Part shown: positions 14,003-62,797 of the stretch, piece by piece
How the letters are laid out: every line of letters starts with the position of its first letter
How positions within the stretch are numbered: position 1 is the first letter of the stretch
Origin: a virus
Lineage: Duplodnaviria > Caudoviricetes
Length of the DNA: 64,000 bases
Reading direction: 5' to 3' (one strand)
IMG/VR virus record: IMGVR_UViG_3300043084_000165
Span: 1 to 64,000 of that record
The notes under the pieces: model-generated
What the model saw: only the letters and a program-made list of their open reading frames with translations
What the model was told of the DNA's origin: nothing
Databases searched by the model: none
Position numbers and translations under genes: made by a program

Positions 14003-14992
14003 TTATCGTCCTGTATACGGAGATCTCAACCACTGGCCGACAATTTTATTTACAGCTGGCACCCATTTTGCCTTCTGTGGTGATGACCAAAAAGAGGTTC
14101 CAACAGATTGCATTAGTTTTGAGCTGCTGTACCAACTGTCAAGCAACCCCTCCAACTGCTTCTTGACTTCATCATACCACTCTACTGTGACCTTTTTCGC
14201 ACTAACGAAATCATATACCTTATGTGCAAGAGCCTCTTTAGTTGGAGATCCGGTACGGGTGAATCCAAACCCATCCAGCAGGTAACGCGGGCGCTGCTTG
14301 TTTGGATCGTCCCAAGTCTTAATAGTGAGGTAGAAGAAACGGCGATCATCTACAAGATACTCCAAGTCATATATGTGCTCATCAATCTTGCAGCCTGCAA
14401 CACTTGAATATGTGTTTTTGAATACGCGGTGGAAGACATGATAACCCAAGTCTGAATAAACACCTGAGATAGAGTCGGCATCGGCCCCGATCTTGTACTT
14501 ACCGCCATTGGTAATTATCTTCTCAAAGTCCTTAGTGAATGTATCAAAGTCTACTGGGGTCTCAGTATCACCGTTCAACACACCCTCTGTGATCGGTGTA
14601 AGAGTGTCGCGGAGATGCGCACTGAGACGCAACAGACCACTTTCGGTGAGGTGCTTGAGCTTATATATAGTAGAATCAATTTGTGACAGTACATCATCGC
14701 AGAGTGATTCAAGCTCGGAGGAGCCGAGTAGCTTGCGGCCTTCTTTGGTAATATCTTTTAGTTTTTCAAGATACTCAAGAGCATCCAAACCCTCGTCCAA
14801 GATATTCTTGTAATCTTTAACTATGTCATTATCAGCCTGATAAGCCTCGATGAGCGCATCCACCTTTTCAGGCATTTCTTTATAGAACTCATCCAGAGCC
14901 ATGTGGCCCGAGTACTTATCAGTTTGTAGGTGCTTACGCCATTCTGCAGTAATGGACTCCTGAAGCGTACCAAAAAATTCAGATATTGTCAT
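14003..14992 (-). CDS. ferritin/Dps-like (DUF5856-like) N-terminal domain fused to an unknown domain
   Basis: H.QT..Y..H.ALDEFY......D.LIE.YQ pattern, with the domain ending YKLKHL. Confidence 0.6.
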   Translation of the reverse strand: MTISEFFGTLQESITAEWRKHLQTDKYSGHMALDEFYKEMPEKVDALIEAYQADNDIVKDYKNILDEGLDALEYLEKLKDITKEGRKLLGSSELESLCDDVLSQIDSTIYKLKHLTESGLLRLSAHLRDTLTPITEGVLNGDTETPVDFDTFTKDFEKIITNGGKYKIGADADSISGVYSDLGYHVFHRVFKNTYSSVAGCKIDEHIYDLEYLVDDRRFFYLTIKTWDDPNKQRPRYLLDGFGFTRTGSPTKEALAHKVYDFVSAKKVTVEWYDEVKKQLEGLLDSWYSSSKLMQSVGTSFWSSPQKAKWVPAVNKIVGQWLRSPYTGR

Positions 14993-15071
14993 TTTTCAAA
15001 AATGTATACATTTTCTCTAATAATAAAAAGAGGACCAACCGGGTCCTCACACACAGCGCACACTTGTGCAC

Positions 15072-15431
15072 TTATTTATTTACCAGTGGATACCAGTCGA
15101 ACAACATGCAAAGTGTAAGTTGGGAAGTGCCCTGGATGTCTACAAAGACAATCTCATCACCGGGCTCTGGAGCGTCACCGTTCAATTCTTCCAGGTAATC
15201 CTTGACGCGATTCAGGTCACCGGCCTCAAAAGGGAGTGCTTTGCGACCGTACACAGCCTCAGCGTGCTCTTTAGCACTTTTGAAGCTCAGGTAATTATCC
15301 ACAGTGAACGGATTGCCCACGATAATGCCATAATTACCACGTTCGTCCTGTGCGGGACAGAGATGATTCTTCACAGGCAGCGCACCACCAATTCGACCCT
15401 CATTTGTGATTGATTCTTGCAATGACTTCAT
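15072..15431 (-). CDS. putative internal head protein (capsid-targeting-like N-terminus)
   Basis: Starts MKSLQESITNEG. Confidence 0.6.
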   Translation of the reverse strand: MKSLQESITNEGRIGGALPVKNHLCPAQDERGNYGIIVGNPFTVDNYLSFKSAKEHAEAVYGRKALPFEAGDLNRVKDYLEELNGDAPEPGDEIVFVDIQGTSQLTLCMLFDWYPLVNK

Positions 15432-15432
15432 A

Positions 15433-16260: not shown

Positions 16261-16262
16261 AC

Positions 16263-16520
16263 TTATTCTTTATCTTTGTTACCCGGAGCGAATGACTTGT
16301 TGAGCATGCCGATGAGCTCACCCCATTCACCCCTTTCTACCAACTCTTTATTATCGTCCAACAGACCATCAATGGTCTTGTTCATCTTGTCCTCATCGAG
16401 TTCATCACCAAACACCTCTTCAAACTTTGCACGAGCTGCTTCGCGGAAATCCTTCTCAGACTTGATTGTTTCGTTGGCTTCATTGAGTGATTCGTTCAGG
16501 AATTCAGTAAGACTTTTCAT
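16263..16520 (-). CDS. small acidic putative head/prohead-core protein
   Basis: Starts MKSLTEFLNESLNEA; Glu/Asp rich. Confidence 0.65.
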   Translation of the reverse strand: MKSLTEFLNESLNEANETIKSEKDFREAARAKFEEVFGDELDEDKMNKTIDGLLDDNKELVERGEWGELIGMLNKSFAPGNKDKE

Positions 16521-16831
16521 TTTATATTACTGTTATTTTTAATCGTTTGAACCAAGGAGTGATTGGTGCTAACAGCATTGTCCAATGAACTTTGCATGAT
16601 TCCCTTCACCTCTTGCAATGAATTTATTTTGGTATTAAGTATTCTGATAGAATCTTCTGCTGTGCGCAAATCGCTTTGCAGTCCTGAGATCTCGTTGCGA
16701 ACAGAGTCTACATACTCTGTATGGGCAGCCTTCTCAAATTCAAGTTGACGACGACCTGTGCAAGAGCGGCAGGATTGAATGAGCAACAAAAACCCCAGAG
16801 CTGCAATGAGCGGATATTGGTAATTTTTCAT
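16517..16831 (-). CDS. membrane or lipoprotein coiled-coil protein
   Basis: Hydrophobic N-terminus ending IQSC, followed by a heptad repeat. Confidence 0.6.
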   Translation of the reverse strand: MKNYQYPLIAALGFLLLIQSCRSCTGRRQLEFEKAAHTEYVDSVRNEISGLQSDLRTAEDSIRILNTKINSLQEVKGIMQSSLDNAVSTNHSLVQTIKNNSNIK

Positions 16832-16861
16832 ATGTTAAATGCTTTGTATCAATATACTCTC

Positions 16862-18232
16862 TCAGGGTTTGTATTTTAGATAGCAATCGCTCACAGAAAC
16901 TAGGTTTTCAATCAAGTCACCATCAGTCCACGTGCCTGGCGCTGTCGGCACCATGTGGCGCATAAATTTCTTATATATATCAGAATGAGCACGCAGTGAC
17001 GAATCAATAGTGTTAAAACCGCCACTAAGTGCTTGATTTAGAATGCCTTTCTCCTTGTCACTCAACTGCCCAACAGCATATTTGTATGACTTAACAAAAG
17101 CGTCACGTGACGACCACTTAGTGGTGTCTTCAAGCAATATATATACATCGTCACATGCGAACGTCTCAACAATCTGTTCTTTAGTGAGACCATGCATGTT
17201 GCGCATCAGTGACTCAGTATAGATGTTGAGGATATCCAACAGCATGTCGGTGAGCTGTTTGTTGCTCTTGATGAACTTGATGATCTTCTTAATCACCGAG
17301 TTCTGAATGTTACCCTCAGACATGCCATAGGATTTTGCAATGTCCTTAGACTTCTCCTTCGTGCGGCCGTTGATACCGAAGAATCTATAAAAGATATCAG
17401 TATCGCGTTGGGTAAAGGTTTTGTCTAGTACATTATATAGTTTCTTCCACTTAGAGTCATCGTCACGGTCACGATCTTCAGCACCTATATAACTCAGATG
17501 ATCCAGGTCATCCAAGTTGTCCAGTGAAGCTGCATCCAGTGACGGACCTTCTCCATCGCGTGACTTTTTAGTAGCATACCAGTTAGTGCCCGACAAGGTG
17601 TGTGAATACTCATCCATGTCGTTGAGGATCTGCTGACGGATTCTATAACCTGCATAGGTCTTAAATGAAACAACCTTGCCACCGTTCTCATCCGGTTCAC
17701 GCTTCCAATCGTTCATAGCATTAGCCAACCCCAACATTCCCGCAGAAATGAGTGATGACTTATCCAGTGACGACTTATCCTTAAACTGATTAACAATGTG
17801 CAGCACCAGTGGGGTATAAAGCTTTGATACTGCGTTGCGACCTGTCTGTGACTCCAGGTCAATAGTTGCATCATCCAGCGCCAGCTGCCCCTTCTCAATC
17901 AATTCACGTTCAGAAGCTGAAAGATACTGCGGCATGACCTTGTAGTTCTGCTTGATAGTCTTCATCAAGTTCCACAAGTCCTCCAAGTCACCCTGCGGGA
18001 TGTTATGCTTTCCAGACAGATCTTTAAGCTTTGATTTATTGGCTGTTCTGATCTCATCCAGCACCTCACGCGAAGTGATATCATACTTTGAAGTGATATA
18101 TATAGCTTTCTGCACATCAACCGGAAGGGACTTCTTGAGCTTGTTGACATACTGCGTGATGTCAGTCTGTAATAGATTGACAGCATCTCGATCACCACGG
18201 CCTTCGCTAATTATCTGACTAAATTTCTTCAT
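16862..18232 (-). CDS. sigma-70-family-like factor with N- and C-terminal extensions
   Basis: Region 2 (LISAGMLGLANA...SFKTYAGYRIRQQI) and region 4 HTH (RDTDIFYRFFGI...KDIAKSYGMSEGNI); N-terminus MKKFSQIISEG. Confidence 0.8.
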   Translation of the reverse strand: MKKFSQIISEGRGDRDAVNLLQTDITQYVNKLKKSLPVDVQKAIYITSKYDITSREVLDEIRTANKSKLKDLSGKHNIPQGDLEDLWNLMKTIKQNYKVMPQYLSASERELIEKGQLALDDATIDLESQTGRNAVSKLYTPLVLHIVNQFKDKSSLDKSSLISAGMLGLANAMNDWKREPDENGGKVVSFKTYAGYRIRQQILNDMDEYSHTLSGTNWYATKKSRDGEGPSLDAASLDNLDDLDHLSYIGAEDRDRDDDSKWKKLYNVLDKTFTQRDTDIFYRFFGINGRTKEKSKDIAKSYGMSEGNIQNSVIKKIIKFIKSNKQLTDMLLDILNIYTESLMRNMHGLTKEQIVETFACDDVYILLEDTTKWSSRDAFVKSYKYAVGQLSDKEKGILNQALSGGFNTIDSSLRAHSDIYKKFMRHMVPTAPGTWTDGDLIENLVSVSDCYLKYKP

Positions 18233-18340
18233 CTAATAAAATATATTTGTGCAACTGAAAATTTGCACGTTTACTTAATACTATAATCTCCCAAAACGAA
18301 TATGATATCAATAGAAAAATAAAAACAGAGCACATCAAAA

Positions 18341-18811: not shown

Positions 18812-18867
18812 ACATTCTTTTATTAACATCTATATTGTTATCAAATTTGAAACTCTTATATAAAGTT

Positions 18868-22147: not shown

Positions 22148-23488
22148 CTACTTACCGAAATCTTCTGACTTGATGCGCACACATTTTGTCTGCATGTCTT
22201 TATACTTCAGGTCAAATCCGGTATTGTCAACAACAACCCATACTAGGTTCTTCATAGTGCGCGGATTGCGTTTATATTGATCCAGGTAACCATCGGTGAA
22301 GATCATCAGTAGCTCAGTCGGGATACGTGAATATTTCTTATCCTTGAGCAACATGTCAAAGACAGGCTTCACATCAGTACCGCCACCACCTTTGATGGTG
22401 TAGTTGTGCATGTCTTTTTTGAGCTGAGCCAGCGATGTAAACTCCTGCACATCAGCTACTCGAGTATCAAACTGCATGATAACAAGACGAATCGGTTTCT
22501 TTGCAAGAGCTACCTGATAAATCTCATTCAAACACTGCTCCAGGTACTTCTGTGTCATAGAACCCGAGGTATCAATAGCGGCTACCATATAACTCATGTT
22601 ATCATACTTGTCCTTGTCAGTACGCGCAATGCGGTCCTGTGAGATTAGGATGTTTTTATTTGCATAAGCTGAGCGTTTGTCATCGGGTGAGATACACTGC
22701 CCTACAATCTTTTTGAGCTCTTTTTTCCAGTCTTTGGTGGTTTTATATAGACCATCCAGACGCGCCTTGAGCTTCTCATAACCTTCACCCTTACCTTGCA
22801 TCTGCGATGCTGCGCGGAGCGCGCGTTCTTGCCATTCTTTTGCGACAGAATCCTCATTACCACCGTCAGCATCATAACCCTCAGACTTAGCAATCTTGTC
22901 ACCAGTCTGACGAGATATCATACCACCAGCAGCTCCAGGGGTCTTATCAAGCTCACCACCACTGGGCTGTGCACAGTCTTCGGGGCGAACAACTCCCTGA
23001 CCGGATTGCTTACCATTGCGGCTTCTGCCACTTGAACCACCTGAGCCTGAGCCCTGTGATTTACCTTGCTGGTTCTGATTACCCGAACCACCTGATCCGG
23101 ATCCACTCTGCTGATCGCCTTCCTGATCGTCCGGATCCACAGGGATACCTTCTAGTCCATCATCAGAACCTGCTCCTGCGCCGCCACCTTGTGACTTACC
23201 TTTATTCTTCATGGCCTTTTTGATGGCCTCGATGGCTGCTTTATAACCTTCATCCCAGTCCTTGCCTGCCCCGGCCGGTCTTTTGGTTGGACCCGTACCG
23301 TTAGATGTGGGTGCAGGACCAGCAGGCGCACCACCCTCGATTTCAGCAAGCTCCTTGTCAATCTCAGACACGTCTTTACCCTTTGCCAACCACTCCTTAC
23401 GTTTCTGTTTTAGAGCCGCGCGGCGCTTCTTCTGCTCCGGTGTAAGGTTCAATGAAGCTTCTGCTATATAATCTGAAAAACTTTGCAT
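22148..23488 (-). CDS. vWA-domain protein (DUF2201 C-terminal-like)
   Basis: MIDAS motifs DTSGS, GGGGT and FTDG; Gly/Ser/Gln-rich linker; N-terminus MQSFSDYIAEA. Confidence 0.85.
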   Translation of the reverse strand: MQSFSDYIAEASLNLTPEQKKRRAALKQKRKEWLAKGKDVSEIDKELAEIEGGAPAGPAPTSNGTGPTKRPAGAGKDWDEGYKAAIEAIKKAMKNKGKSQGGGAGAGSDDGLEGIPVDPDDQEGDQQSGSGSGGSGNQNQQGKSQGSGSGGSSGRSRNGKQSGQGVVRPEDCAQPSGGELDKTPGAAGGMISRQTGDKIAKSEGYDADGGNEDSVAKEWQERALRAASQMQGKGEGYEKLKARLDGLYKTTKDWKKELKKIVGQCISPDDKRSAYANKNILISQDRIARTDKDKYDNMSYMVAAIDTSGSMTQKYLEQCLNEIYQVALAKKPIRLVIMQFDTRVADVQEFTSLAQLKKDMHNYTIKGGGGTDVKPVFDMLLKDKKYSRIPTELLMIFTDGYLDQYKRNPRTMKNLVWVVVDNTGFDLKYKDMQTKCVRIKSEDFGK

Positions 23489-23493
23489 ATTTC

Positions 23494-24213
23494 TTATTTT
23501 ATTTTTCCAGCCTTGTAGTCAGCAATTGCCTGAGCCCAACCGGCCTTGTAGTCAGCTGAATATTCAGGTTTATTATCACCACCTGAGCCTGAGCCCTGGC
23601 CATTATCACCATCTCCATCTTCACCGTCCTGGTTCTGCTGAGCCTGTTTGGCCTGATCATCATTACTCATGTCATCACTGGAACCCGAGTTGCAAATGTC
23701 ATAAATCTTTTCAAAGCCCATGTCCTTGAATTTCATGTCGATATAGGCTTTGAGATTTTTCACCGTGGACTCTTTGAATAAGCCAATGGATACAAGTGTG
23801 GTGTTCACCTCATAGTCTGCTGCGATGTTTGACTTAGTATGGTCACGGCCTTGTTCGCGGCGTAGGTGGTTCATCAGACAGTGCATGAGCTCATGGGCCA
23901 TTACGAAACACTTACCAGTGAAATCCAGGTTGGCCGTAAACTGCGGGTTTACAAAGATGTTGAAGCCATCAGTTGCCTGAGAAAAAACCTTAAACGTGTA
24001 AATGTATCTTAGCTTACTAATAAATCCACCAAACATCGGGGCAAGGTGGGTGAGCGCGGCCATAGCTTTGTATTGCTGGTCAATCAAATCCACCATGTCG
24101 ATTATCTGACCATCCGGACACACTATGGTTTCATAGTCTTCCCATTTCTTACCGTTAGCATCCTCATCCCAACCGGATTCCAATACCTGTTTTACTATCT
24201 TGTTATCTTCCAT
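23494..24213 (-). CDS. HExxH metallopeptidase-like protein (DUF2201 N-terminal-like)
   Basis: ATDG..I.VNP.F, AHELMH, NIAADYEVN; ATG at 24213. Confidence 0.85.
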   Translation of the reverse strand: MEDNKIVKQVLESGWDEDANGKKWEDYETIVCPDGQIIDMVDLIDQQYKAMAALTHLAPMFGGFISKLRYIYTFKVFSQATDGFNIFVNPQFTANLDFTGKCFVMAHELMHCLMNHLRREQGRDHTKSNIAADYEVNTTLVSIGLFKESTVKNLKAYIDMKFKDMGFEKIYDICNSGSSDDMSNDDQAKQAQQNQDGEDGDGDNGQGSGSGGDNKPEYSADYKAGWAQAIADYKAGKIK

Positions 24214-24383: not shown

Positions 24384-25091
24384 TTAATCAATCTTATCAA
24401 CTATAACACGATCAATGTTGTTGAGCTTCTTAAATGTTCCGTTTGCATCATCTACATAGTTATTAGTCATGGCTGGGTCATCAAATGATCCCACCATTAC
24501 TGTGTTGAGATGGCATTCTTTTGCATGAATGCCAAGCTTATCAGTGAAGACCTGAATCCAGGGGCGATGGTTACGAGTGGACAAAGTCACTGTGCCGATT
24601 TTAGCATTAGGGAACTTGATTTTGCAAGGTACGTTTTCTGCGCCACCAGGAACAGACCATCTGCCGAACTTATAAGGTCTCTGTATCTTTACATCATTAT
24701 GTGATGAGTCGCTGGTGAATACTTCAAGTCTGTCAAATGGGATTCGTTTATAGAATGCATCAAGATCGACAGAGTCCTGGGCGCATGCACGAACGAGCAC
24801 GTCCTTAGGTAGGCTTGAGCCGCGCGACATCAGTTTTTCTATGTCATCTTCATCCCAACTGCCATCGGTTTGGATAGCAACTACTTTAGAGAAGTCAAAT
24901 TTTGCATCGGCAGGACATTCACTATAAATGCTCTTTGATGATTCAGTGAATACTAGCGCAGTACAGTAAATAGTGCCGGCTTTAGCTGTTGCATAGGTAC
25001 CCATCCAAGCGCTCCCATACTGTTTATATTTACGACAATATGCTGAGATCTCTTTGGCACCTTCAGTGAGATATTGGTAGAGCGAAATCAT
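24384..25091 (-). CDS. hypothetical protein with capsid-targeting-like N-terminus
   Basis: Starts MISLYQYLTEG. Confidence 0.7.
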   Translation of the reverse strand: MISLYQYLTEGAKEISAYCRKYKQYGSAWMGTYATAKAGTIYCTALVFTESSKSIYSECPADAKFDFSKVVAIQTDGSWDEDDIEKLMSRGSSLPKDVLVRACAQDSVDLDAFYKRIPFDRLEVFTSDSSHNDVKIQRPYKFGRWSVPGGAENVPCKIKFPNAKIGTVTLSTRNHRPWIQVFTDKLGIHAKECHLNTVMVGSFDDPAMTNNYVDDANGTFKKLNNIDRVIVDKID

Positions 25092-25651
25092 TTAATATAC
25101 TTAGCATATTTAGGAGCAATATCTATCATGACTTTATCACCATCGCTCATTTCCCATTTTCGTGGATTGATAGCCCACTTGAATCGTTGAGCATATGCTA
25201 TGATGTCCTCAACAGGTGTGGGTGACGTGAAATTGTCCAGTCGGATTCGTCCGTTGCGTTTGAATACTATAAAAGTCTCATCGCAACTATGCCGGTCGCC
25301 ACAGGATATGTTCAAGTCTGTAAACATCTTGTCCAGGTCTTCCCATATCACCCTGAGATTCTTTAACATGGTAATAGTGTCATCCGAAGGCACACCCCAA
25401 ACTCCGCGCATGCTTGCGATGCGGCTGGCGAGTTGAGCCTTGAGATCGTTTGAAAGTTTATCCGAACCGCAATTCTGTTCCATGCAGGCTAGTACAGCAT
25501 CTGAGAAATTCTTGAGCGGTATTGCGCTGATGTGGTAGTATGCATCAAACCAGGCCTTGAATTGTTGGTTCTTGAGGTTTGGCATTTCCACACCCAGGTC
25601 CTCATTATCTATATCTAATATGCCTTCAAAAAGGTGTTGTAGAGAGTTCAT
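25088..25651 (-). CDS. hypothetical protein with capsid-targeting-like N-terminus
   Basis: Starts MNSLQHLFEGILD. Confidence 0.7.
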   Translation of the reverse strand: MNSLQHLFEGILDIDNEDLGVEMPNLKNQQFKAWFDAYYHISAIPLKNFSDAVLACMEQNCGSDKLSNDLKAQLASRIASMRGVWGVPSDDTITMLKNLRVIWEDLDKMFTDLNISCGDRHSCDETFIVFKRNGRIRLDNFTSPTPVEDIIAYAQRFKWAINPRKWEMSDGDKVMIDIAPKYAKYIK

Positions 25652-27511: not shown

Positions 27512-29335
27512 TTACCCCAATCCTTCTACACCGTCGACGAGAGCCTGGCTGAAGGCCGCCCCATACGCTTTAGCAAGCATCTGATGACCTACCGAATAGT
27601 CTGGCATAGTGTCAAGCGTGAATCCCCACTTGTCCGTGAACGGTTTGTATGCGTCACGATACATATCTGCTTTGACTGGATCCTGAGCTGCGAGAACCTT
27701 GATCTTCTTAGTCATGATGAACATACCAGGACGTGTCTTCTCAGGCAACATGCCTGCAAATACGTTCTGAAGAATGTCCAAGATATAAGAGGCCAACTGA
27801 TCTGAGTTCTGAGCCACCATCCAGGTGCAGAGGTTCTCAAACTCCTTCTGATCCGGATAGCTCTGTGAGTGTGCTGAAACGACCAACTGTGAAATTGGCA
27901 GTGCTACCATCTGCAGGTCTTTCTTTGCGAGCTTGAAGTTCTTACCACCGTTCTTCCAAATGTCCTTGACTGCTGCATCAAAGTTACCCACCTTAGAGAT
28001 AACATCCAAGAAAGCAATGAATGAATCTACTGCCTGAGCCGGAACATACTGGTTAAGTGTGCGCTGAAGAATACGGCGTGGAATATCAAACAGGGTGAAG
28101 CCCTCAAGAGCACCTGTCTCTGAATAAGTTGCAAGCTTGCGCATAGCATTAGTCCAAGAACGTGGCGTACACATTACCTTTGTTACACCAGCACCTTCCA
28201 TATCCTCGTTCGGGTCCATATAGAAGTACTTACCGCCTGACATATTCTCATGCTCAGGCATTGCGAGCCACTGGAGAAGGAGTGGTGACATATAGTTTTG
28301 TGTCTTAGCCCACTGCATCCAAGTCTTAACTGTTGGTTCGTAGTAAAGCTGGCTGAAGCGGTTTGACAGTGCATTACCGATATCAGACTGGCCAGCCATT
28401 TCGTCCTCGGCGCGGTTGGATGCGCAAATAATCACCCAACCTGAGCCCAAGTGATAACCGTTAAAGATACCTTCATTGATAAGAGGGAGCATTACGTTGA
28501 GTACCTGTGGAGTGGCACGAGAGAGCTCATCAATAAACAACAGCCCCTTACCACATGCATCATCCAAGATCTGATCCTGGTTGCGATCTCCGGTTGGCTT
28601 ATATACAGGAAGCCAAGTCTTAGGAACATCTGTTGCCTTTTCCTGACCATCAACTTCCACATACTTAGGAAGCGTAAAGTTGTCTGGGGTCTCATTAGAA
28701 AGAGTCTTTACAATGAGGTTGTACTCATTGCCGTTTGGAAGTGAGTTGAGCACTGACATCAGGATAGCGGTTTTACCAATACCTGGGGCACCCCAGATCA
28801 TCAGACGAGCGAGATCCTTGTGTTTGAAGCACAAGGCAATTTCTTCCTTGAGCTCATCAGTGTCAACAACATTATATTTTGCTTCGGGGTCTTCTGTGTG
28901 CATCTTTACCTCGTTTACATTTGCGGTTTGGTCTTCAGTAGCCTCGTTGATCTTCTGCCAGTACTGAAGTGAGTTGCCTGAACCGTACAGTTTCTTTGCT
29001 TCGGCCGGTTTGGTGCTGAGTCCTACGATGCGGCGGCCTGCACCTGACATTACCACGAGTGTAGATGCTTTGTTAATAGCCCCATCCTTGTAAGCCTGAC
29101 CTGCGGTCAACGGAGAGATGGCGTTCTGAACATTACCGTTGTCATCCACTGGGCACCAGTAAGAACCTGTGAGTTTCGCAACGATACCAGTCAGGAAGCT
29201 TACAACCTGCTTGAACTTACGCTTGAGAGTATTGAGAATGTCCTTGAGACCCTCATCAATATGCTCCTCACGCTGATCATCGATGAAGTCAACAAGACTT
29301 TGGACCCCGAGAAGCGATTCTTGAATATCTTTCAT
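27512..29335 (-). CDS. MoxR-like AAA+ ATPase
   Basis: Walker A GAPGIGKT, Walker B LFIDE, sensor ASN, Arg finger NRF, TPRSW; likely ATG at 29335. Confidence 0.88.
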   Translation of the reverse strand: MKDIQESLLGVQSLVDFIDDQREEHIDEGLKDILNTLKRKFKQVVSFLTGIVAKLTGSYWCPVDDNGNVQNAISPLTAGQAYKDGAINKASTLVVMSGAGRRIVGLSTKPAEAKKLYGSGNSLQYWQKINEATEDQTANVNEVKMHTEDPEAKYNVVDTDELKEEIALCFKHKDLARLMIWGAPGIGKTAILMSVLNSLPNGNEYNLIVKTLSNETPDNFTLPKYVEVDGQEKATDVPKTWLPVYKPTGDRNQDQILDDACGKGLLFIDELSRATPQVLNVMLPLINEGIFNGYHLGSGWVIICASNRAEDEMAGQSDIGNALSNRFSQLYYEPTVKTWMQWAKTQNYMSPLLLQWLAMPEHENMSGGKYFYMDPNEDMEGAGVTKVMCTPRSWTNAMRKLATYSETGALEGFTLFDIPRRILQRTLNQYVPAQAVDSFIAFLDVISKVGNFDAAVKDIWKNGGKNFKLAKKDLQMVALPISQLVVSAHSQSYPDQKEFENLCTWMVAQNSDQLASYILDILQNVFAGMLPEKTRPGMFIMTKKIKVLAAQDPVKADMYRDAYKPFTDKWGFTLDTMPDYSVGHQMLAKAYGAAFSQALVDGVEGLG

Positions 29336-40900: not shown

Positions 40901-42517
40901 ATGAACAACGAAATCGATTACTCAATATATGAGTCTGTGGATGATCTCAAGGCTGCGTTCAGCATCAACGAAGATAAACGGGACGAACCGAAGGGCTCCG
41001 AGAAACCCGACAAGGTACTCAAGGCCGACAAGTTGCCCGTGGTGTATGCTGATTTGAATATTAAGAAATATCACAATATATTCAAGCACTGGATTATCTT
41101 CACCAATGACCGTTCTGATGAGAACAAGACGCTCAAGAACATTCATGAGGCCATTAAAGATTTTGACATGAAGCCCGAGCTACATATCTTTGTTGCCGCT
41201 GACATGGACGCAGAAGAGGACGAATCGCGTATCACCATCCGTGATGATGAAGAGGAGTTCACTATTGAGAAAGAGTCTAACCTGGACACCCTTGTATTTG
41301 CACGTTTGGGAGTGCAGGGTGAAGATGAATGTGAACATGCAGTTCAGTTGTTGCAGGATCGTGGGTTCCTAGTTCTCAACCCCATCAGACCTTCACAGAT
41401 TGCCTGCGATAAGTATCAGTCAGCATGTTTGTTTGAGAAGGGTAACATTCCTCAACCACGTTTCTGCCTGATGACCAAGGAAGATTTCTATGATGCTGAT
41501 TCGTTTAAGGCACAGATAACTCGAGTATATCCTGACTATAACTTCAATGACCCCGACAAGAACAAAGATAAGGACTTGGTAATCAAGATCTTAGACGGCC
41601 ACGGAGGTACTGGCGTCATGTTGATCGATTGCAAACGCACCACCGCGGTACTTCAAGCTATTTTTGCTATTGACCCGGAACGTAGACTTATTATACAGCG
41701 CAAAGAGGAAGGTGACGGTGGTGACATCCGTGTTCACGTACTAACTCTGCGCAACAAACAAATCATCCTGGCTGCTATGAAGCGTCAGCAACTGGGTGGC
41801 GACTTCCGTTCTAATGTATCACTGGGTGCTGAGGCGGTGCCTATCAAGCTTACCCCTGAACAGGAACAAATTGCACTACGTACAGCCATGCTCTCCAAGT
41901 TACCCTGGTGCGCAGTTGACATCATGCCACTGGTGAAAGGTTCTAACAAGGAGATTGGAGACAATGTAGTTCTCGAAATCAATGCGAGTCCGGGTACATT
42001 CGGAATCTCTGAGGTTATCAAGCGGAACTTTATCAATGTGATGGTGAACGAACTGAATGATCCTTCAGAGTTTATGTTGCAGGATAAGACAGCGGGATTT
42101 GTTGAGTCTATTAACATAAAGTTTGCTGATAATGTTCACGTAGATATGTTAGCGAAATTGGATACTGGCAACTCTACAACGGCTTCAACTATGGAAGTGG
42201 GTAAGTTTGCGGACAATGGTAAAGAGATTTCATTTAAGGTAGGTGGCAAGAACCTTTCCTTTAAGAAACAGAAGTCTATGATTGCCAAGGCTGGTGAAGA
42301 GCAGTATGAGCGCCCGACCATCATAGTACCTGAGATAACGGTGGGGTTGCGTAAGGTTAAGGACGTTCGCTTTGCTGTTGTAAAGTCACGTGAGAACAAG
42401 ACAACCAATGTGCTACTCAATCGAGATGTGCTGTCGCGGTTGGGTTATACCGTGCATCCAAGCACTGCGCACATTCTTACGCCAGAGATGCAGAAAATTG
42501 ATGTAAGCAGATTATAA
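40901..42517 (+). CDS. RimK-family ATP-grasp ligase fused to a retropepsin-like (DTG) domain
   Basis: ACDKY, IPQP, K..DG.GG.GV, DIRV, FRSNVSLGA, VDIM, LEINASPG; C-terminal AKLDTG...LLNRD. Confidence 0.85.
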   Translation: MNNEIDYSIYESVDDLKAAFSINEDKRDEPKGSEKPDKVLKADKLPVVYADLNIKKYHNIFKHWIIFTNDRSDENKTLKNIHEAIKDFDMKPELHIFVAADMDAEEDESRITIRDDEEEFTIEKESNLDTLVFARLGVQGEDECEHAVQLLQDRGFLVLNPIRPSQIACDKYQSACLFEKGNIPQPRFCLMTKEDFYDADSFKAQITRVYPDYNFNDPDKNKDKDLVIKILDGHGGTGVMLIDCKRTTAVLQAIFAIDPERRLIIQRKEEGDGGDIRVHVLTLRNKQIILAAMKRQQLGGDFRSNVSLGAEAVPIKLTPEQEQIALRTAMLSKLPWCAVDIMPLVKGSNKEIGDNVVLEINASPGTFGISEVIKRNFINVMVNELNDPSEFMLQDKTAGFVESINIKFADNVHVDMLAKLDTGNSTTASTMEVGKFADNGKEISFKVGGKNLSFKKQKSMIAKAGEEQYERPTIIVPEITVGLRKVKDVRFAVVKSRENKTTNVLLNRDVLSRLGYTVHPSTAHILTPEMQKIDVSRL

Positions 42518-42522: not shown

Positions 42523-42553
42523 AAAAGCTCGAGGTCATCCTCGAGCTTTTTTT
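42523..42553. terminator. bidirectional intrinsic terminator
   Basis: AAAAGCTCGAGG-TCAT-CCTCGAGCTTTTTTT. Confidence 0.88.
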
Positions 42554-50979: not shown

Positions 50980-52404
50980 TTAACGGTCTGGGTGACGTCG
51001 TCGGTCGTCCCAAAACATTGTGATTCCGAGTTTGTTCGTGTACTTCTGCACAGACTCCTTTGAGATGTCTTGCATAAGTGGTGCGTAACAGTAGCAGTAT
51101 GTATTGAGTTGCTTGATATCCTTGTTGTTATCACATAGGTTGTGAATAGCCTTGTACATGTTCCAGTACTCAGAGTCGGGATCAGAGGTGAGCTTGTCTT
51201 TGTCTTTATCCATGAGTAAGTCAAGAACAGTAAATACTACACGATGCTTGTGCCATTTCTTATCATCCTCCTGAGCGTCTTTATATGCTTGCTCCAACCC
51301 CTCAAGATGCTTTTTGACATAACTTTCATAACCCTCCACTTTAGATTTGGTGGTAGAAGAGTCCTGATCAAGCAACTTAAAGGATCCACCGAAGCCTTTG
51401 GTTGGTTCATAATCATGCACATCATGTTCCTCGTTGAACTCTGCGAGCTTCTGTTCGCGTTCCGAGCGAGACTCGATCTTCAGGATGTCCTCAAGCTTTT
51501 CAAATTCCTTCTTGTCATCTGCGCTGAGACAACCCTTTAGCAAGCGTCTATAACGCTCAGAGAACTCAGGAACCTGCAAAATACGCATGTGCATCAGACC
51601 CAGGTGATTGTTATATTCTTTCTTATACTTTGCAATCATCTTCTTGTCAAACTCTGGGTCGTTGACTATATGTAACCATGACTGTGCACCTTCGATATCT
51701 TTATCATACAACATCTGTGCCCATTCCTGAGTGTAGGGGGTTTGCATAACCACAACCACATGCTTATAACCCATCTTTTTAACATAGGTTAAAAAGCGGG
51801 CCGCACAAACCCAGGTGTACTTTTTTGCGATGTCTGGTTTTTCAGCGAAGTGGTCCCATTCGTCGTAACGATATGGATAGTACTGGGAGCACTCAAGCGG
51901 TATGATACCGGGGTTGGAAATGCAGGCGCAGTCTGTAAACGCTCTATACCTGTCCAGGAAAAGATTCTTGCGGATCTTTGAGTCAACATATGGTTTTGAG
52001 TTAGAACACTCAAACACGGTCAACACATCACGCAGACGTTTATTTTCTGATAGACAGAACTCAGTCAGCGTCCAATAGTGCGGGTGCATGAGCTGGTATT
52101 CGGTCTCACCAATCAGTCCATCCAGGTCCCACTTATCACGGGGAATGACCTCTTCTGAGGCTTTGAGAATGGGTACGCAAACGTCTTTTGCATATGCGAT
52201 GATACCAGCACGTTTGTGGTCGCCGGTGATGTTATATTTACGTGTCAACTTTTCAAATCGTGACTTGAAATGTTTCGCCCACAGATACTTGTGCATGCCA
52301 ATCTTGTAATAAATGGCATTGTCAGAGGTGGGAGAGTCTGACGATTCATTTATTGAGTCTATGGAACTCGTGTGGTTCCATAGGTATTCCGAAATGTCGT
52401 ACAT
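50980..52404 (-). CDS. ArcS-like (DUF5591) domain protein
   Basis: FECSNSKPY.DS.IR and ISNPGIIPLE....YP..YD resemble archaeosine synthase PCS..KPY..S and TSP.G.VP.E....YP...YD; lies between folE2 and queE. Confidence 0.6.
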   Translation of the reverse strand: MYDISEYLWNHTSSIDSINESSDSPTSDNAIYYKIGMHKYLWAKHFKSRFEKLTRKYNITGDHKRAGIIAYAKDVCVPILKASEEVIPRDKWDLDGLIGETEYQLMHPHYWTLTEFCLSENKRLRDVLTVFECSNSKPYVDSKIRKNLFLDRYRAFTDCACISNPGIIPLECSQYYPYRYDEWDHFAEKPDIAKKYTWVCAARFLTYVKKMGYKHVVVVMQTPYTQEWAQMLYDKDIEGAQSWLHIVNDPEFDKKMIAKYKKEYNNHLGLMHMRILQVPEFSERYRRLLKGCLSADDKKEFEKLEDILKIESRSEREQKLAEFNEEHDVHDYEPTKGFGGSFKLLDQDSSTTKSKVEGYESYVKKHLEGLEQAYKDAQEDDKKWHKHRVVFTVLDLLMDKDKDKLTSDPDSEYWNMYKAIHNLCDNNKDIKQLNTYCYCYAPLMQDISKESVQKYTNKLGITMFWDDRRRHPDR

Positions 52405-56890: not shown

Positions 56891-57489
56891 TTGTTCAATT
56901 TTATTGTTTTAACTTCAATATTAAGATAGTCAAGAATCTCATCAGTTATAGCTACACAACAACCGCGCCATAAAATTTTCTTGTCAGGACCGAATGTTGG
57001 CACAAATACGACTTTGATATCATGACCATCCAGTTTTAATGTGGTTGATGTCGTTTTTTGAGATGCGCTCGCAATCTCACGACCCAATTGCCCTAGGATG
57101 TAATTGGCTGCATGTCTGAGGTTTACAGTGGGCACTATACGCACATAGCTGTCCTCACCATCCTCAAAAAAGAAGAAGTGTTCATGTGCTACACTGTCGG
57201 TGCCCCAACCGGGTTTCTTCTTGTCATAGTCACTATATAATTCCACCAACAAGTCGTCCCAGGGTTGTGAGCGAAACTTCTCAGAGATCATCCACTCGCC
57301 TGGCCAGCCCGTTGGGTTGCGTAACACTACATCCACATCATGTCGTTGAAGATTGCCACCATTATTCCAGTCGGGTCTGTAGATGACTTTGTTTGGGAAC
57401 AATTCTTTATATAGTGCATCTGCGCGTGGCCACCAGGTGCGTTCATACTTTAATCCTTCGTTAAATGTATTCATAATCTTACATGTCAA
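56866..57489 (-). CDS. hypothetical protein, possible PD-(D/E)xK nuclease
   Basis: Q..DVD...SEK.R and VEL......PGW pattern. Confidence 0.45.
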   Translation of the reverse strand: MTCKIMNTFNEGLKYERTWWPRADALYKELFPNKVIYRPDWNNGGNLQRHDVDVVLRNPTGWPGEWMISEKFRSQPWDDLLVELYSDYDKKKPGWGTDSVAHEHFFFFEDGEDSYVRIVPTVNLRHAANYILGQLGREIASASQKTTSTTLKLDGHDIKVVFVPTFGPDKKILWRGCCVAITDEILDYLNIEVKTIKLNKCNTPENK

Positions 57490-58429
57490 ATAAGTTTGCT
57501 TCTATGTGACCATCCCAGTTGAGGTCCTTCAGACCTACGTTGCTCAGGATTCGATTGATAGGGTCTAGTACACACTTTTGAAACATTGCCTTACGGTCAA
57601 TGGGTACGTACTGCTCGGCCCACTTGGGGAGCGCTGAGGGTTGGAATGTGAATATCACATCATTGTCGGTCTTCTTTTTCGGAGTGTTGGGCTTTACGAT
57701 GTAATATTTCATCTTACCATTGTACAGGGGTTCGCCTGGCAGACCTTTAGTTTGCCTCAACCAATTGTAAAAAGCAAGACCGCGCACCTGGAATGGACAC
57801 CCTTTCTTAACCACCACTCCCTGTAGAGGATCATCATCTGAGATTACATAGTCCATATAACCATTCACTGAAATGGCAGGTGATATATGGTCTATATCTG
57901 CTACCTCCCAGGCACGGCGCCCCTCTTGGCAGATTGCATTGAGCTCGTGGATGAGAGTGGGCGACTCAGACATCAGCAGGTGTTTAACCAGTTTTGTCAA
58001 CAAGTCGCGTGCGGGTGCTGGGAAGCTTGCCTTAACCATTTCCAAACCCTTGGTTTTAGACTTCAAGTGATCCTCATCGAAGTACTTACCATCCTTGAAG
58101 ATGAGCATCTGTGAATAACGCTTCTTGACATCCAACCGAATCTCTGAGTATGAAATAGTCTCCAGCTCGAATTCATGAACCATGTCCGTGTCTACGTTGC
58201 GTATATTTCTGCCACGATAGTACTCAGTCATGATCTCTTTATTATGACCATTCAAGAACTTCTCGCTGAGCGCTACTAATATCTTTGCCTTATCTGTAAT
58301 GGACATATTCTCAACTCCTTCAATGGTGTCCAACAAACCTTCGTAACAGAAATAAATAGAATCCGTATCCCCTGCCACCGGCTGAACCAGAATGGTTTTG
58401 TCTTTTATATATGTATTTTCAATTTCCAT
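57479..58429 (-). CDS. family B DNA polymerase, C-terminal subunit
   Basis: Motif C AGDTDS, KKRY, KTKGLE, thumb domain. Confidence 0.88.
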   Translation of the reverse strand: MEIENTYIKDKTILVQPVAGDTDSIYFCYEGLLDTIEGVENMSITDKAKILVALSEKFLNGHNKEIMTEYYRGRNIRNVDTDMVHEFELETISYSEIRLDVKKRYSQMLIFKDGKYFDEDHLKSKTKGLEMVKASFPAPARDLLTKLVKHLLMSESPTLIHELNAICQEGRRAWEVADIDHISPAISVNGYMDYVISDDDPLQGVVVKKGCPFQVRGLAFYNWLRQTKGLPGEPLYNGKMKYYIVKPNTPKKKTDNDVIFTFQPSALPKWAEQYVPIDRKAMFQKCVLDPINRILSNVGLKDLNWDGHIEANLFDM

Positions 58430-58467
58430 ATATCAATTTTGTTGGTTAATAATGTTTTAATATACCA

Positions 58468-60087
58468 TTATTCAGGTGCATGTTTAATATACAGCGTATG
58501 TTTGACATGTCCCGAATCCCATATCTTGTGATAGGGTAGTTCAGACATTATCTCAGCCTCCGTCCTGCTTATATCAAACCCCAACTGTGCCAGTCGAGTC
58601 TTGCAGAATGATGTTCTGTGATAACGCTGGTTGGTCTGTTTGTGGATGTACCAATAGGCTGGGGTTATTTTGTTATCAGTTTCAAAGCCCAACTTCTTAT
58701 ATACATCACCATTACTGATATCGTTTGAACTGAACGAAACTATTTTGTCTGGGTTGTGCTGTTTTATAAACATCTTTATAAATCGTGCTGCCAGGCCCAG
58801 GATCTGCCAGTTCAACAAAGTACAGAAGCGGGTCAGTTCCCAGCAATCATCATTCTTTCCGCCGGACAACTTAGAGCGCTTTGCAAAGCACATCACCCCC
58901 ACCAGCTCGTCTTTGTAGTATGCACCCAGGTGCACAGAGGATCTTGAAGCTCCCTGTAAGTGGTTGGCATTCAAGAAGTTATTGCAGTCTCGCGATGGAA
59001 TCTGTCTCAGTTTACATTGTCGTGCGCCGATGCGAACCTCATAAATGCCCAACTTGGACAGTATGACAGACTTAACTATATCAGGGTGATTTGCAAACTG
59101 ATCATCCCATATAGTCAACAACTGATACCCCACACTACGCGCCTCGATGTACTTATCCATATGATATTTATAAGGCTTGAGCGCCTCTGAGTGCCACCAG
59201 TCACCGTTACACTCAATAGCTATTTTGTACTGAGGCAGTACAATATCCAGGCCCTTGTGGGATGGTAGAATGGAGCGATCTTCACGAAGAAGAGTTTGCA
59301 CACCATGGGTTGCGAGCAGTTCTCTGATGGAGCGCTCCGTAAATGACATTTTGTTCTTACCAACTTGCAGTGGGTGTATGGTTGTACAGGGTTCTATATT
59401 GAATTTCTTTCGCGTATGATAGTGTTTGGGGTGGATTTTATAGGTTCGCTGCTCGCATTTGGTGCATTCGGAATGAGGGCATTTACGTATCTGATAATCA
59501 CCGTCCCAGCCGATCAAATCGGGGTCTGTACTGAGATCGCGCAGTATTTTAGAGATTTTTTTTCTAAACTCCGCGGTTTTTGTATGATGATCTACTCCGT
59601 ACTTCTCCAGTGAGTTAGTGCGACGCACATCCTGTACTTCTGCAGCCTGTGACGGATAATCCGTACCATAACGCTCATTATATATAGACTTCAGCTTAGA
59701 CTTAACCTCCTCTGCCTGGTATGGGTTGTCTACACCATAATGCTCCTGACATGTCCTGCGTGCAGCTTTTCGATTGTTATAGTTTATATCCCCATAACGC
59801 TCCATTTTAGTACGCTCAGCCTTACGGACACACTCTTTGTCTTTATAAGTACAGGCTGTCGAGCAATGTACATTATAACCATGTACAAAGTTGCGATAAG
59901 CCGTCGGCGCGCCACAAACAACACAGACATGAGGTTCGGGGTGTAGATATCTATACAGTTTCTCCGAAAAAGTCCCACCATCCAGGGACTCTATGTATTC
60001 ATAAAACTCCGGATAGCGGGCTTTGAAGAACTTTGGACTTGGCTTAGTCAATTTGCATAAACTTTCTTTATCAGGGAAATTTGTCAT
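58468..60087 (-). CDS. free-standing homing-type endonuclease, paralog 4, located between the polymerase halves
   Basis: CVVCG, ERYG repeats, LDI...IECNGDWWH, NHLQG, ELTRFC, IWDSG. Confidence 0.75.
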   Translation of the reverse strand: MTNFPDKESLCKLTKPSPKFFKARYPEFYEYIESLDGGTFSEKLYRYLHPEPHVCVVCGAPTAYRNFVHGYNVHCSTACTYKDKECVRKAERTKMERYGDINYNNRKAARRTCQEHYGVDNPYQAEEVKSKLKSIYNERYGTDYPSQAAEVQDVRRTNSLEKYGVDHHTKTAEFRKKISKILRDLSTDPDLIGWDGDYQIRKCPHSECTKCEQRTYKIHPKHYHTRKKFNIEPCTTIHPLQVGKNKMSFTERSIRELLATHGVQTLLREDRSILPSHKGLDIVLPQYKIAIECNGDWWHSEALKPYKYHMDKYIEARSVGYQLLTIWDDQFANHPDIVKSVILSKLGIYEVRIGARQCKLRQIPSRDCNNFLNANHLQGASRSSVHLGAYYKDELVGVMCFAKRSKLSGGKNDDCWELTRFCTLLNWQILGLAARFIKMFIKQHNPDKIVSFSSNDISNGDVYKKLGFETDNKITPAYWYIHKQTNQRYHRTSFCKTRLAQLGFDISRTEAEIMSELPYHKIWDSGHVKHTLYIKHAPE

Positions 60088-61922
60088 GCTCGTTTTGGTT
60101 TCAATTTGATTCCCAGTTCCTTGTGAAGATCGGTCATTTCATACCAATGTTCTTGAAATAGGGCTGGAATGTCGCGTTCCATAATGTGAATTAGGTTACG
60201 ACCCTCGCCAGTGATGTCATTAGCAAGGTGGATATTAAACCAGGCAAATGCCACATGTGAAGATCCACCGTACATAGAGTTCATAATCAGCTTGATGGCC
60301 TGTTCCTTACATGTCATGAACGTGATGTCATCTTTAAGACGTGGTTTGAGTGCTTTGAAGTTATATTGTGCCAGCTCCTCAGAATTTCTTGCATTGCAAC
60401 CAAACTCTCTAAGTTCTTCCTGCACATGTTCTGAATACTCTCTGAACGGTGCTGTACGACCCTCAATCAAGTGATCAATATCTGTCATTACTGTGGCATC
60501 CAGTTCCTTTGAGAGGTACTTTGTAACACCGCGAAGCTTTTTAAGGCCCCACTGAATGTTCTTAAACGCGTAGTCTTTGTCGTTTTTATATACACATCCG
60601 TTTACTGAAACAAAGTAGTTTGGGTCTTTTTTATATACCTCCAGCTGTTTCTCTGTGAATTTACCATCTGCAAGCGATCCCAAATAGTTCTCAATGGAAA
60701 GATTGCATGTGATGATGACCGATGGATAAAGTGATGCGAAATCTTGGCAGCATACAAATTGGTGCTTACCTGGTGTAGTTTTTCGCACATAAGCACCCAT
60801 CAGCTCTCCACGTTCTCCAGTAAACTTATCCGGCGGAACTACTTTAATGTTGTGTTCATAAAAGTAGTTGAAGAACATGGACTCAGTGATCTTGATCTTT
60901 GAAAATGCTGTTGAGATATCATTTCGACAGATGAGTGACTGTACGTACAAAATACTCAGAGTCTTGAACTTCTTGTCAATCAGCTGCACCAACACAGAGT
61001 CAATCATGTTATAAAAGACATATGTGGCGTAGTCTGTCTCATACAGGTGCTGCAGGTCTCCATCATACTTAATCTTACCCACACCGATACTCTCAGTGGC
61101 GATGTAATCCAGTGCCAAACTCTCTTTAATGGGCATTACCGCCATGTCATAAGTTCCCACAATGTCCATCATATCAAGGATGAGCGTGTGGTTAGGCATG
61201 TTCAAACGCACCTTGTTGCCTTTCATATCAGTGATTTGCTTGCCCTTCATCGTCCAATCCACTGAACAACTATTGAATGAGATCTCCGGGTAGAAGTTCT
61301 TGACACGGTTCTGAATATACTGCCAGTCAAATCCGAGTGAGTTCCATCCTGCCAGTACCGGGCATTTTGCCACGAAATTCCGAAGGAAATAGTTGAGCAT
61401 GTCGCCCTCTGAGCTGAAATAAATGTATTTGGCTGACGGGGTGGGAAGATGCAGGCTCTTGAAGAACTCACACTTGTCCAGCCACTCCTCATACTGACGA
61501 GTCATGTTCTGCAAGTCTTCAAGCGGTTTGATACCCAACACTATGGCATCCAGCTTATCATTCACAATAGAGATGGTGAGGATGGGGAAGTCTGCCTTGT
61601 CGGGCTCGGGAAATATCTTTGGATCTACCTGACACTCAATATCAAATGTGTACAGGCGGGGATTAGTCTTACCTAACAATAATCGTCTATCTGCTTCAGG
61701 GAGCTCCTCAATGAATGTCTTGTACTCAGTCCATTCGGGGCGATCTGTCATGCGAACCGTGCACTTCTTTCCGTTCCAGTTCTCATACTGACCATTGGGA
61801 TCTTCGGCGTAAGTCTTGAATCGATTTACGTTATATTTAAGCAGCGCCTTGCCACCTGTCTCCGTCACATAGGAGATAGTCATCTGATGCTTCTGCTTAT
61901 GGTAATTGTAATCTAATATCAT
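60084..61922 (-). CDS. family B DNA polymerase, N-terminal subunit (exonuclease + motifs A, B)
   Basis: ExoI FDIE, ExoII WN..GFD, ExoIII YN..D, motif A DFASLYPS, motif B K...NSMYG. Confidence 0.92.
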   Translation of the reverse strand: MILDYNYHKQKHQMTISYVTETGGKALLKYNVNRFKTYAEDPNGQYENWNGKKCTVRMTDRPEWTEYKTFIEELPEADRRLLLGKTNPRLYTFDIECQVDPKIFPEPDKADFPILTISIVNDKLDAIVLGIKPLEDLQNMTRQYEEWLDKCEFFKSLHLPTPSAKYIYFSSEGDMLNYFLRNFVAKCPVLAGWNSLGFDWQYIQNRVKNFYPEISFNSCSVDWTMKGKQITDMKGNKVRLNMPNHTLILDMMDIVGTYDMAVMPIKESLALDYIATESIGVGKIKYDGDLQHLYETDYATYVFYNMIDSVLVQLIDKKFKTLSILYVQSLICRNDISTAFSKIKITESMFFNYFYEHNIKVVPPDKFTGERGELMGAYVRKTTPGKHQFVCCQDFASLYPSVIITCNLSIENYLGSLADGKFTEKQLEVYKKDPNYFVSVNGCVYKNDKDYAFKNIQWGLKKLRGVTKYLSKELDATVMTDIDHLIEGRTAPFREYSEHVQEELREFGCNARNSEELAQYNFKALKPRLKDDITFMTCKEQAIKLIMNSMYGGSSHVAFAWFNIHLANDITGEGRNLIHIMERDIPALFQEHWYEMTDLHKELGIKLKPKRA

Positions 61923-62017
61923 ATTCTGTATGTTTATAACAATGTACGTTATAATATAGATTTTTGCCCTGTTGAGTTAAGAGGTGGACCTATTATATAT
62001 TCAAAAGAAAACATTCT

Positions 62018-62797
62018 ATGAAATCCTTATACGACTATATAAATGAAGCGCGTGAGCTGCTGGGTGCTCTCCCATTCACTCGAGAACAATTCAAAGAGTA
62101 CTTGATTGCCGCAAGTGACTATGATGATGAGAGCGAGATTTGGCAGTTCATGGAGCGTACTATCACAGATACTTATGGCGAAAAGGCATGGTCTGGATTT
62201 AAGGGTTGGTGTGAAGGTAATGCTTATGGCTCTGACGCAGATGAGTTATATAACATCCTCACCAAACTCCCCAAAAACCGCATTGCCCGAGTACTGGGTG
62301 CTGGATCTTTTGGAGCTGCCATAGAGATTGGTGATAATAAGGTTTGCAAGCTGTTCCATAAAAATACTCCCATGGAGTCTAAAGATATTAAATTCTATAA
62401 GTATTGCAAAAGTCACAAATCTGATGTATTCCCTCGTGTGTTTAAGTTGGGTTCGAACTTCATAGTTATGGAGAAGCTCAACCTGAACACCGATAAGTGC
62501 AAGCTGTATAATAGCTACTTGGGTATGTCGCCAAAAATCAAATTTGATGGGATCTGCATGGAAAAATTGTTAAAAGGTATACGCAGTCCCAGCATCATTA
62601 CAAAACGAGATTTTCAGAAGTATACTAAACTTGTAAATGCGCTCACCGCAGAGCAGAAAGAGGTATATCACTGGGGTTGGACGATCCTGGATGGCCTGAA
62701 AGAAGCCATTGGTAGTGATGATAGCTTGTTGGACCTGCGTTTGGCAAACATCGGCGAGCGTGTTGGTAGTGGTGAAATTATATTCTTCGATATATAA
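62018..62797 (+). CDS. protein-kinase-like protein with capsid-targeting-like N-terminus
   Basis: LGAGSFG, VCK, VMEKL, catalytic loop DLRLANI, IFFD; starts MKSLYDYINEA. Confidence 0.75.
   Translation: MKSLYDYINEARELLGALPFTREQFKEYLIAASDYDDESEIWQFMERTITDTYGEKAWSGFKGWCEGNAYGSDADELYNILTKLPKNRIARVLGAGSFGAAIEIGDNKVCKLFHKNTPMESKDIKFYKYCKSHKSDVFPRVFKLGSNFIVMEKLNLNTDKCKLYNSYLGMSPKIKFDGICMEKLLKGIRSPSIITKRDFQKYTKLVNALTAEQKEVYHWGWTILDGLKEAIGSDDSLLDLRLANIGERVGSGEIIFFDI

Follow-up and report, generated by a model that had tools for sequence, protein, structure and literature searches.

A probable T4-type capsid-targeting leader shared by dissimilar proteins in an uncultured T4-like jumbo phage

The 91.7 kb IMG/VR viral contig IMGVR_UViG_3300043084_000165, whose first 64 kb form the stretch of DNA studied here (the window; positions refer to it unless given as genome positions), encodes a set of unrelated proteins that begin with nearly the same short sequence of about ten residues. 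We consider it probable that this common N-terminus serves a variable cargo as a leader for capsid targeting and cleavage of the T4 type, a reading that draws on the sequences of the leaders and head genes and on analogy with T4. The seven tagged proteins of the window would then probably be capsid cargo. An earlier note on this DNA, made without database searches, had quoted seven such N-termini. All seven are present at the claimed gene starts, six of them on the minus strand (15431, 16520, 18232 for the sigma-like protein, 23488 for the vWA protein, 25091 and 25651) and one on the plus strand (62018, kinase-like):

15072..15431, minus strand: tagged protein of 119 aa, no family; start MKSLQESITNEG, the longer-by-one variant
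16263..16520, minus strand: tagged protein of 85 aa, acidic; start MKSLTEFLNES
16862..18232, minus strand: tagged sigma-70-like protein of 456 aa; start MKKFSQIISEG; phrog_351 at 2.4e-13
22148..23488, minus strand: tagged vWA (DUF2201) protein of 446 aa; start MQSFSDYIAEA; Pfam PF09967 at 2.8e-14
24384..25091, minus strand: tagged protein of 235 aa, no family; start MISLYQYLTEG
25088..25651, minus strand: tagged protein of 187 aa, no family; start MNSLQHLFEG, the shorter-by-one variant
62018..62797, plus strand: tagged protein-kinase-like protein of 259 aa; start MKSLYDYINEA

Five of the seven leaders fit the strict pattern M-x-[SK]-[LF]-x3-[IL]-x-E-[GAS], and the two variants are off by one, that at 15431 (I-T-N-E-G) being one residue longer and that at 25651 (L-F-E-G) one residue shorter. 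Of 101 gene starts, 5 matched the strict pattern used as a regular expression; it had no match among the 3,948 other ATGs of the six frames or among 630 internal Met positions. An eight-position class score reached at least 7 at 5/101 starts and at 0/615 internal Met positions. We also applied a pattern-free test, in which BLOSUM62-similar pairs among residues 2–12 of all 101 N-termini were counted and compared with 500 resamples of internal segments. Thirteen pairs scored 18 or more, against a resample mean of 2.2 and a maximum of 8, and the biggest cluster contained the five core tags. Regular expression, class score and resampling agree that the motif is enriched over background. The starts of the polymerase, helicase, ligase, NrdD and RuvC were checked as well and lack the pattern, as the earlier note had said of the replication enzymes.

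A pattern at gene starts might arise as a by-product of translation-start constraints, such as A-rich early codons in a host that does not use Shine-Dalgarno sites, or by chance. Lys (AAA) is indeed common at codon 2, and Shine-Dalgarno sequences are absent from the upstream regions. The tag is found on only ~5–9% of genes, however, and many synonymous codons encode its conserved hydrophobic residues 4 and 8 and its Glu10. The absence of matches at other ATGs and internal Met positions, the codon variation and the resampling, which never reached the observed clustering, contradict this explanation, and we regard it as very improbable indeed.

The leader is a modular peptide tag, neither a DNA repeat nor the mark of a paralogue family. 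Its codons differ between genes, with Leu4 encoded by six codons and the information concentrated at codon position 2, so it is not a DNA repeat. In an all-against-all BLAST of the tagged proteins minus their first 15 residues, no hit had an E value below 0.04. As the proteins are dissimilar behind the leader and the codons vary, selection acts on the peptide. The vWA protein has acquired its tag plus linker as a module, since orthologues begin at query residue 76 and are without the 75-residue extension, which is made up of tag, basic helix and Gly/Pro linker.

Relatives of the phage were located by portal-based searches, as contigs of 150–240 kb. Two complete relatives were stitched together, G003 at 159 kb and G002 at 197 kb; G002 has terminal repeats. 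The contig and these two genomes supply 37 tags, whose consensus is MKSLKEYINESL (M-K-S-L-K-E-Y-I-N-E-S-L). In T4 (NC_000866), ipII and ipIII begin MKTYQEFIAEA and ipI begins MKTFKEF...ITEA. The leader of T4 IPI, IPII and IPIII (and of Alt) is removed by the prohead protease gp21 (reviewed in PMC9026906, PMC5694885). Targeting by the T4 leader lies in residues 4 and 7 and processing in residues 8 and 10; an Asp10 substitution blocks cutting and leaves targeting unaffected (PMC9026906). The best-kept positions in the orthologue families of the sigma-like and kinase-like proteins are 4, 8 and 10. Among 120 cluster representatives of the sigma-like family (43–100% identity), Phe4 is found in 111, I/V8 in 109 and Glu10 in 113, and position 7 remains hydrophobic. 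M1, K2, L4, E10 and R12 are invariant among 13 kinase-like homologues.

The contig is about 56% complete (CheckV) and carries structural and replication genes, including those for tail tube, head-closure protein, baseplate wedge, helicase, ligase, NrdD and RuvC. Its head genes include:

12005..13807, minus strand: T4 Gp20-type portal protein (PF07230 at 1.7e-72; phrog_213)
genome 82511-84268, outside the window: Gp23-type major capsid protein (PF07068 at 2e-24)

Among cultured or named phages, the nearest capsid proteins are those of the jumbo phages Tenacibaculum pT24 and PTm1, Prevotella Lak and Sphingomonas PAU, and a megablast search of window positions 14–26 kb against cultured phages gave no match. 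The source is an uncultured T4-like jumbo phage. From the lack of Shine-Dalgarno sequences upstream of its gene starts we infer a Bacteroidota host.

A Peptidase_S77 (gp21) domain was found in ORFs of ~480 aa in four of the five larger relatives searched (G001–G004), and all three relatives that are 97–100% complete encode one. The gp21-type protease-scaffold ORFs in relatives are:

L021, 481-1914, minus strand (G003)
L020, 1456-2898, plus strand
L022, 1426-2853, plus strand
L023, 436-1914, minus strand

Homologues of this protease occur in 686 phage records, many of them T4-like and including cyanophages and coliphages, and the copy in PTm1 is annotated 'prohead core scaffolding protein and protease'. 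In the relatives this protease is fused to a coiled coil and to a scaffold, a run of IQKWIVEEYSP-type repeats that makes up the C-terminal half. [LIV]-x-E motifs are dense in the scaffold part, at 8.7 per 100 aa in G003 (proteome mean 1.7) and 6.5 in G002 (mean 1.75), exceeding every other protein of at least 150 aa in both proteomes. Such dense sites would be expected of a scaffold that the protease chops up; the T4 prohead protease also destroys core proteins (PMC5694885). The capsid protein has a conserved N-H-E-[IVM]-[YF]-E|[GA] near residue 40, in its propeptide region. Judged indirectly, from sequence, a protease specificity for hydrophobic-x-Glu seems to be visible in both the scaffold and the capsid protein propeptide. 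The protease domain of the relatives ends ...NENQIAE|SINES, likely a self-cleavage site. When the protease domain of G003 was folded together with the N-terminal 40 residues of the adjoining tagged protein, the predicted complex scored 0.00, a result that says nothing either way about binding.

Packaging, cleavage and injection are what we infer by homology of the whole head system. The leader is a short amphipathic peptide in which position 4 is hydrophobic, position 7 aromatic or small, position 8 Ile or Leu, position 10 Glu and position 11 small. It would bind the scaffolding core during prohead assembly and so bring the protein behind it inside. Cutting after hydrophobic-x-Glu by the gp21-family prohead protease would follow, and the mature cargo would remain with the DNA and enter the next host cell. 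The cargo set is variable and includes the sigma-like factor, the kinase-like protein, the vWA protein and several small orphans.

The complete relatives G002 and G003 each have 16 starts with a class score of at least 7, and roughly 25–30 each when judged by eye. The protease gene is immediately preceded by at least seven tagged genes in G002 and by two in G003. The tagged proteins are mostly orphans, together with DUF285, MATCAP peptidase and DUF5591 proteins, and none of the tagged proteins of the relatives is a replication enzyme. The tagged MATCAP-family metallopeptidases lie at 130749-134749 in G002 (in L039), where the gene adjoins a RimK-type ATP-grasp gene, and at 147872-149017 in G003 (in L031).

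Other relatives use leader dialects such as MKSLxESLFD, MKHLVxxIxEG and MKTLQESIIGRKG, which differ between lineages (L014 and L015, 13–19 kb; L005–L009). Many small paralogues begin MK(T/H)(L/I)xESIIGRKG, with no Glu10 but with L-x-E|S at positions 4–6. About eight proteins of G003 have a common 25-residue start, MKNIKEYINESLFDxEDDLLDK. On a 673 kb megaphage contig (L019, 13239-15558), four adjacent paralogues begin M(R/K)xxxK(R/K)(A/S/T)LYESIM(R/K)DVAK, perhaps a separate family of longer leaders in what is a Lak-like megaphage.

Dialects without Glu10 would fit a different role for the leader, as a recognition peptide for some other common partner unrelated to the capsid, for example a modifying enzyme, a regulated protease or a chaperone of the kind of the MoxR AAA+/vWA pair. 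The presence of a MoxR-vWA-metallopeptidase trio in the same gene block (see below) points the same way. We nevertheless find this distinctly unlikely. The match of the leader to the T4 sequence is position-specific, the scaffold is full of the same motif, which is also conserved in the propeptide region of the capsid protein, and the tagged genes cluster beside the protease in relatives.

We next consider what the leader is attached to. The earlier note spoke of diverse enzymes; the sigma-like, vWA and kinase-like labels are backed, and no family was matched by the other four tagged proteins. Homologues of the sigma-like protein bear PF04542 and JGI sigma names. The kinase-like protein (62018-62797) has no Pfam match and gave a weak T7-kinase lead when Pfam at relaxed thresholds and the ESM Atlas were searched, and its 13 homologues retain GAGSxG, VCK, D-x-R-x-A-N and F-D-I motifs. 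Its AF2 model (pLDDT 85.5), in which tag residues 4–12 are helical, gave kinases in every row listed by Foldseek, mostly protein kinases, at E 0.07 or weaker. All 50 rows listed by VIA were protein kinases or kinase-containing complexes, with Z of only 5.3–7.1.

For the orphan cargo proteins, two of which are acidic, Pfam at relaxed thresholds and ESM Atlas gave nothing usable. The 15072..15431 protein has candidate sites L-Q-E|S and T-N-E|G, a mature pI of 4.7 and no orthologue in G002 or G003. The 16263..16520 protein has further x-x-E sites after the leader (SLNE|A, ANE|T), a mature pI of 4.5 and an orthologue in G003 that begins MIDLIDFINEQ. The 24384..25091 protein has just two close homologues among 5.8 billion proteins. 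Three cargo proteins in all are without an orthologue in the two complete relatives.

The role first proposed for such a payload, host takeover or anti-defence, is conjectural, as four of the seven cargo proteins are familyless. In its fullest form, the proposal is that this lineage uses a T4-like leader as a general tag to load sigma-70-like, kinase-like, MoxR/vWA and DUF5591 proteins into the capsid, such that the infecting DNA arrives with its own promoter-recognition subunit and host-modifying enzymes. We put this forward tentatively, as a possibility that we rather doubt.

The leader might also bring proteins into the prohead as parts of the assembly or internal core, like T4 gp67/gp68 or accessory scaffold, to be degraded or retained there and not injected as effectors. 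Tagged genes do lie within head and protease modules, and many tagged proteins of the relatives form small paralogous families with long common leaders such as ESLFDxEDDLLDK. Destruction of T4 core proteins by the same protease (PMC5694885) is a further point in favour. On the other hand, it is hard to see what sigma-like, kinase-like and vWA proteins would do in assembly, and the cargo content differs between close relatives, unlike that of core assembly parts. On this evidence a purely structural role seems unlikely.

The earlier note had also read looser leaders, with I-x-E sites, ahead of the AAA ATPase, RimK and ArcS-like domains, and this was borne out in part: the AAA site is conserved and the ArcS-like tag is canonical in relatives, but the RimK leader is unconserved and the ArcS-like one is degenerate here. 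These proteins, and a further one with a tag-like start, are:

27512..29335, minus strand: MoxR-type AAA+ ATPase (Pfam AAA_5; phrog_1297)
40901..42517, plus strand: RimK-type ATP-grasp protein (PF08443 at 3.3e-20)
50980..52404, minus strand: DUF5591 (ArcS-like) protein (PF17884 at 2.6e-5, below the curated cut-off)
14003..14992, minus strand: DUF5856 protein; start MTISEFFGTLQESITAEW, tag-like in appearance

The true start of the AAA+ ATPase is probably Met16 of the longest ORF. A site of the form [ILV]-[DN]-E|[GS]-L-K-D, ~25 residues in, is conserved in all orthologues, and in G003 the conserved [ILV]-[DN]-E|[GS] site closes a 9-residue leader; a second conserved hydrophobic-x-E-small site lies near residue 128. 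The DUF5591 leader reads MYDISEYLWN ... SINES on the contig, and its orthologues are canonically tagged in G003 (MKTLQDFILEQ) and G002 (MKSLSEYMQES), the G002 copy sitting in the tagged cluster upstream of the protease. Tagging of the RimK-type protein is doubtful, because an N-terminal alignment showed that its loose leader (SIYES, SINED) is not conserved among orthologues.

Two candidates were rejected. The range given in the earlier note opens with the DUF5856 gene, though the note did not list it; the start of this protein is the beginning of a conserved domain, as phrog_858 matches from residue 3 and PF19174 from residue 21, and orthologues conserve FGTLQQSV. The protein at genome 72567-74078 (MDLSSFIKEN) has a G002 orthologue without the Glu.

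Several findings weigh against a T4-type leader on capsid cargo. The N-termini are capsid-targeting-like in that the T4 resemblance is real, position-specific and found on unrelated proteins, but searches of the 91.7 kb contig with PF03420, PF04586 and tblastn using the relatives' proteases found no prohead protease. Because the contig is a fragment, this result does not mean that the phage is without one, and its protease is deduced from the relatives. The cultured relative PTm1 has only about three tag-like starts. The dialects of some relatives lack Glu10 (ESLFD, ESIIGRKG), and the AAA ATPase leader MKDIQESLLG is tag-like but has Gly at position 10; cleavage at position 10 therefore cannot be universal. 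Tagged genes make up ~6–9% of the total in G002 and G003, far above T4. Several cargo proteins are acidic (pI 4.5–5.4), unlike the internal proteins of T4, which are basic. Finally, the tag of the sigma-like family is conserved no better than the remaining protein, giving a non-discriminating conservation profile.

Six of the tagged genes make up a single block on the minus strand (25651 to 15072), with the portal gene directly downstream in the same orientation, and the tagged kinase-like gene at 62018 is the first gene of a baseplate operon. A TATTATAT motif lies ~30 nt upstream of 62018 and likewise upstream of the portal gene. The form TATTATAT(A) is found at window positions 13841, 20231, 34567, 40868 and 61991 and genome positions 70807 and 76121, 27–44 nt upstream of genes that include those for the portal, tagged kinase-like, RimK and 1044-aa proteins. 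Variants of the motif stand upstream of the genes for the capsid protein and the AAA ATPase. The motif is a possible late promoter, comparable to T4 TATAAATA. A bipartite CTAAAT-N12/13-TTTGTTATATATCTTC is present upstream of non-structural operons (window 3156, 24242, 40826, 45639, 48895 and 54949; genome 70293) and represents a second promoter class, which a phage sigma factor possibly targets.

Beside the head genes lies a conserved trio consisting of the MoxR-type AAA+ ATPase (27512-29335), the DUF2201 vWA protein (22148-23488) and a partner of the latter:

23494..24213, minus strand: DUF2201_N metallopeptidase, vWA partner, not clearly tagged (PF13203 at 4.5e-23)

In G002 the DUF2201_N peptidase and the vWA protein are fused into one protein of 505 aa. 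Six proteins of ~530–600 aa have similar N-termini (...YPEF...) and apparently form one family:

window 20263-22053, plus strand: ...YPEF... family copy
window 25668-27395, minus strand: ...YPEF... family copy
window 42535-44121, minus strand: ...YPEF... family copy
window 58468-60087, minus strand: ...YPEF... family copy
genome 70798-72483: ...YPEF... family copy
genome 80720-82405: ...YPEF... family copy

The two copies scanned (20263-22053 and 58468-60087) match phrog_3339, a homing endonuclease, and the copy at 58468-60087 interrupts the DNA polymerase B gene, splitting it into 60084-61922 and 57479-58429. Small proteins among the structural genes carry lipoprotein-type signal peptides (…LLIQSC…, …SLFSAC…), at window 16517-16831 and genome 75886-76077, both on the minus strand.

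If the T4-like function is true, the leader would be a sequence marker of the injected proteome, with ~16 or more proteins per genome, across a large group of uncultured T4-like jumbo phages that probably infect Bacteroidota. Candidates for early-acting effectors and anti-defence proteins could then be listed from sequence alone. The tagged sigma-like factor is the most interesting point. It would be a sigma factor delivered by the virion, where N4, phiKZ and crAss-like phages bring virion RNA polymerases instead, and, to our knowledge, would give a phage a new means of initiating its own transcription. The tag could also be used as a handle for loading cargo when phages of gut or marine Bacteroidota are engineered.

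The loading principle itself has been known since 1996 from T4, whose capsid targeting sequence was reportedly described by Mullaney and Black in that year. The system considered here shares with T4 a ~10-residue N-terminal leader, M-K-[ST]-[YLF]-x-[ED]-[FY]-I-x-E with a small residue after the Glu, carried by fast-changing proteins that are otherwise unrelated, in a phage whose portal is of the Gp20 type and whose capsid protein is of the Gp23 type. As in T4, a gp21-family protease is present, here in the relatives, along with a scaffold rich in hydrophobic-x-Glu sites. It differs from T4 in having more tagged genes (at least seven on half a genome and at least 16 per complete relative) and in a cargo that includes large enzyme-like proteins (sigma-like, kinase-like, vWA and DUF5591). 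The fusion of protease to scaffold in the relatives and the leaders without Glu10 in some lineages are further differences.

Loading of enzymes into phage heads is also known from P1, which is unrelated to this phage. The P1 Dar set includes a large DNA methyltransferase/helicase, and loading in P1 is ordered and dependent on the partner proteins DarA and Hdf, and is not known to depend on a short shared cleavable decapeptide. The Dar anti-restriction proteins are packaged via N-terminal capsid-targeting regions (PMC9024508), and the likeness lies in enzymes that counter host defences being loaded into the head and injected. The giant phages phiKZ, 201phi2-1 and SPN3US have processed head and ejection proteins (PMC5694885, PMC9026906), and many of their virion proteins, some of them enzymatic (vRNAP), are cut after Glu by a gp21-related protease. 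Their propeptides resemble the leaders described here in having redundant cleavage sites. In contrast, those propeptides often exceed 100 residues, follow the motif A/S/G-x-E and have no common decapeptide at the extreme N-terminus, and the phage studied here belongs to a different, T4-like lineage.

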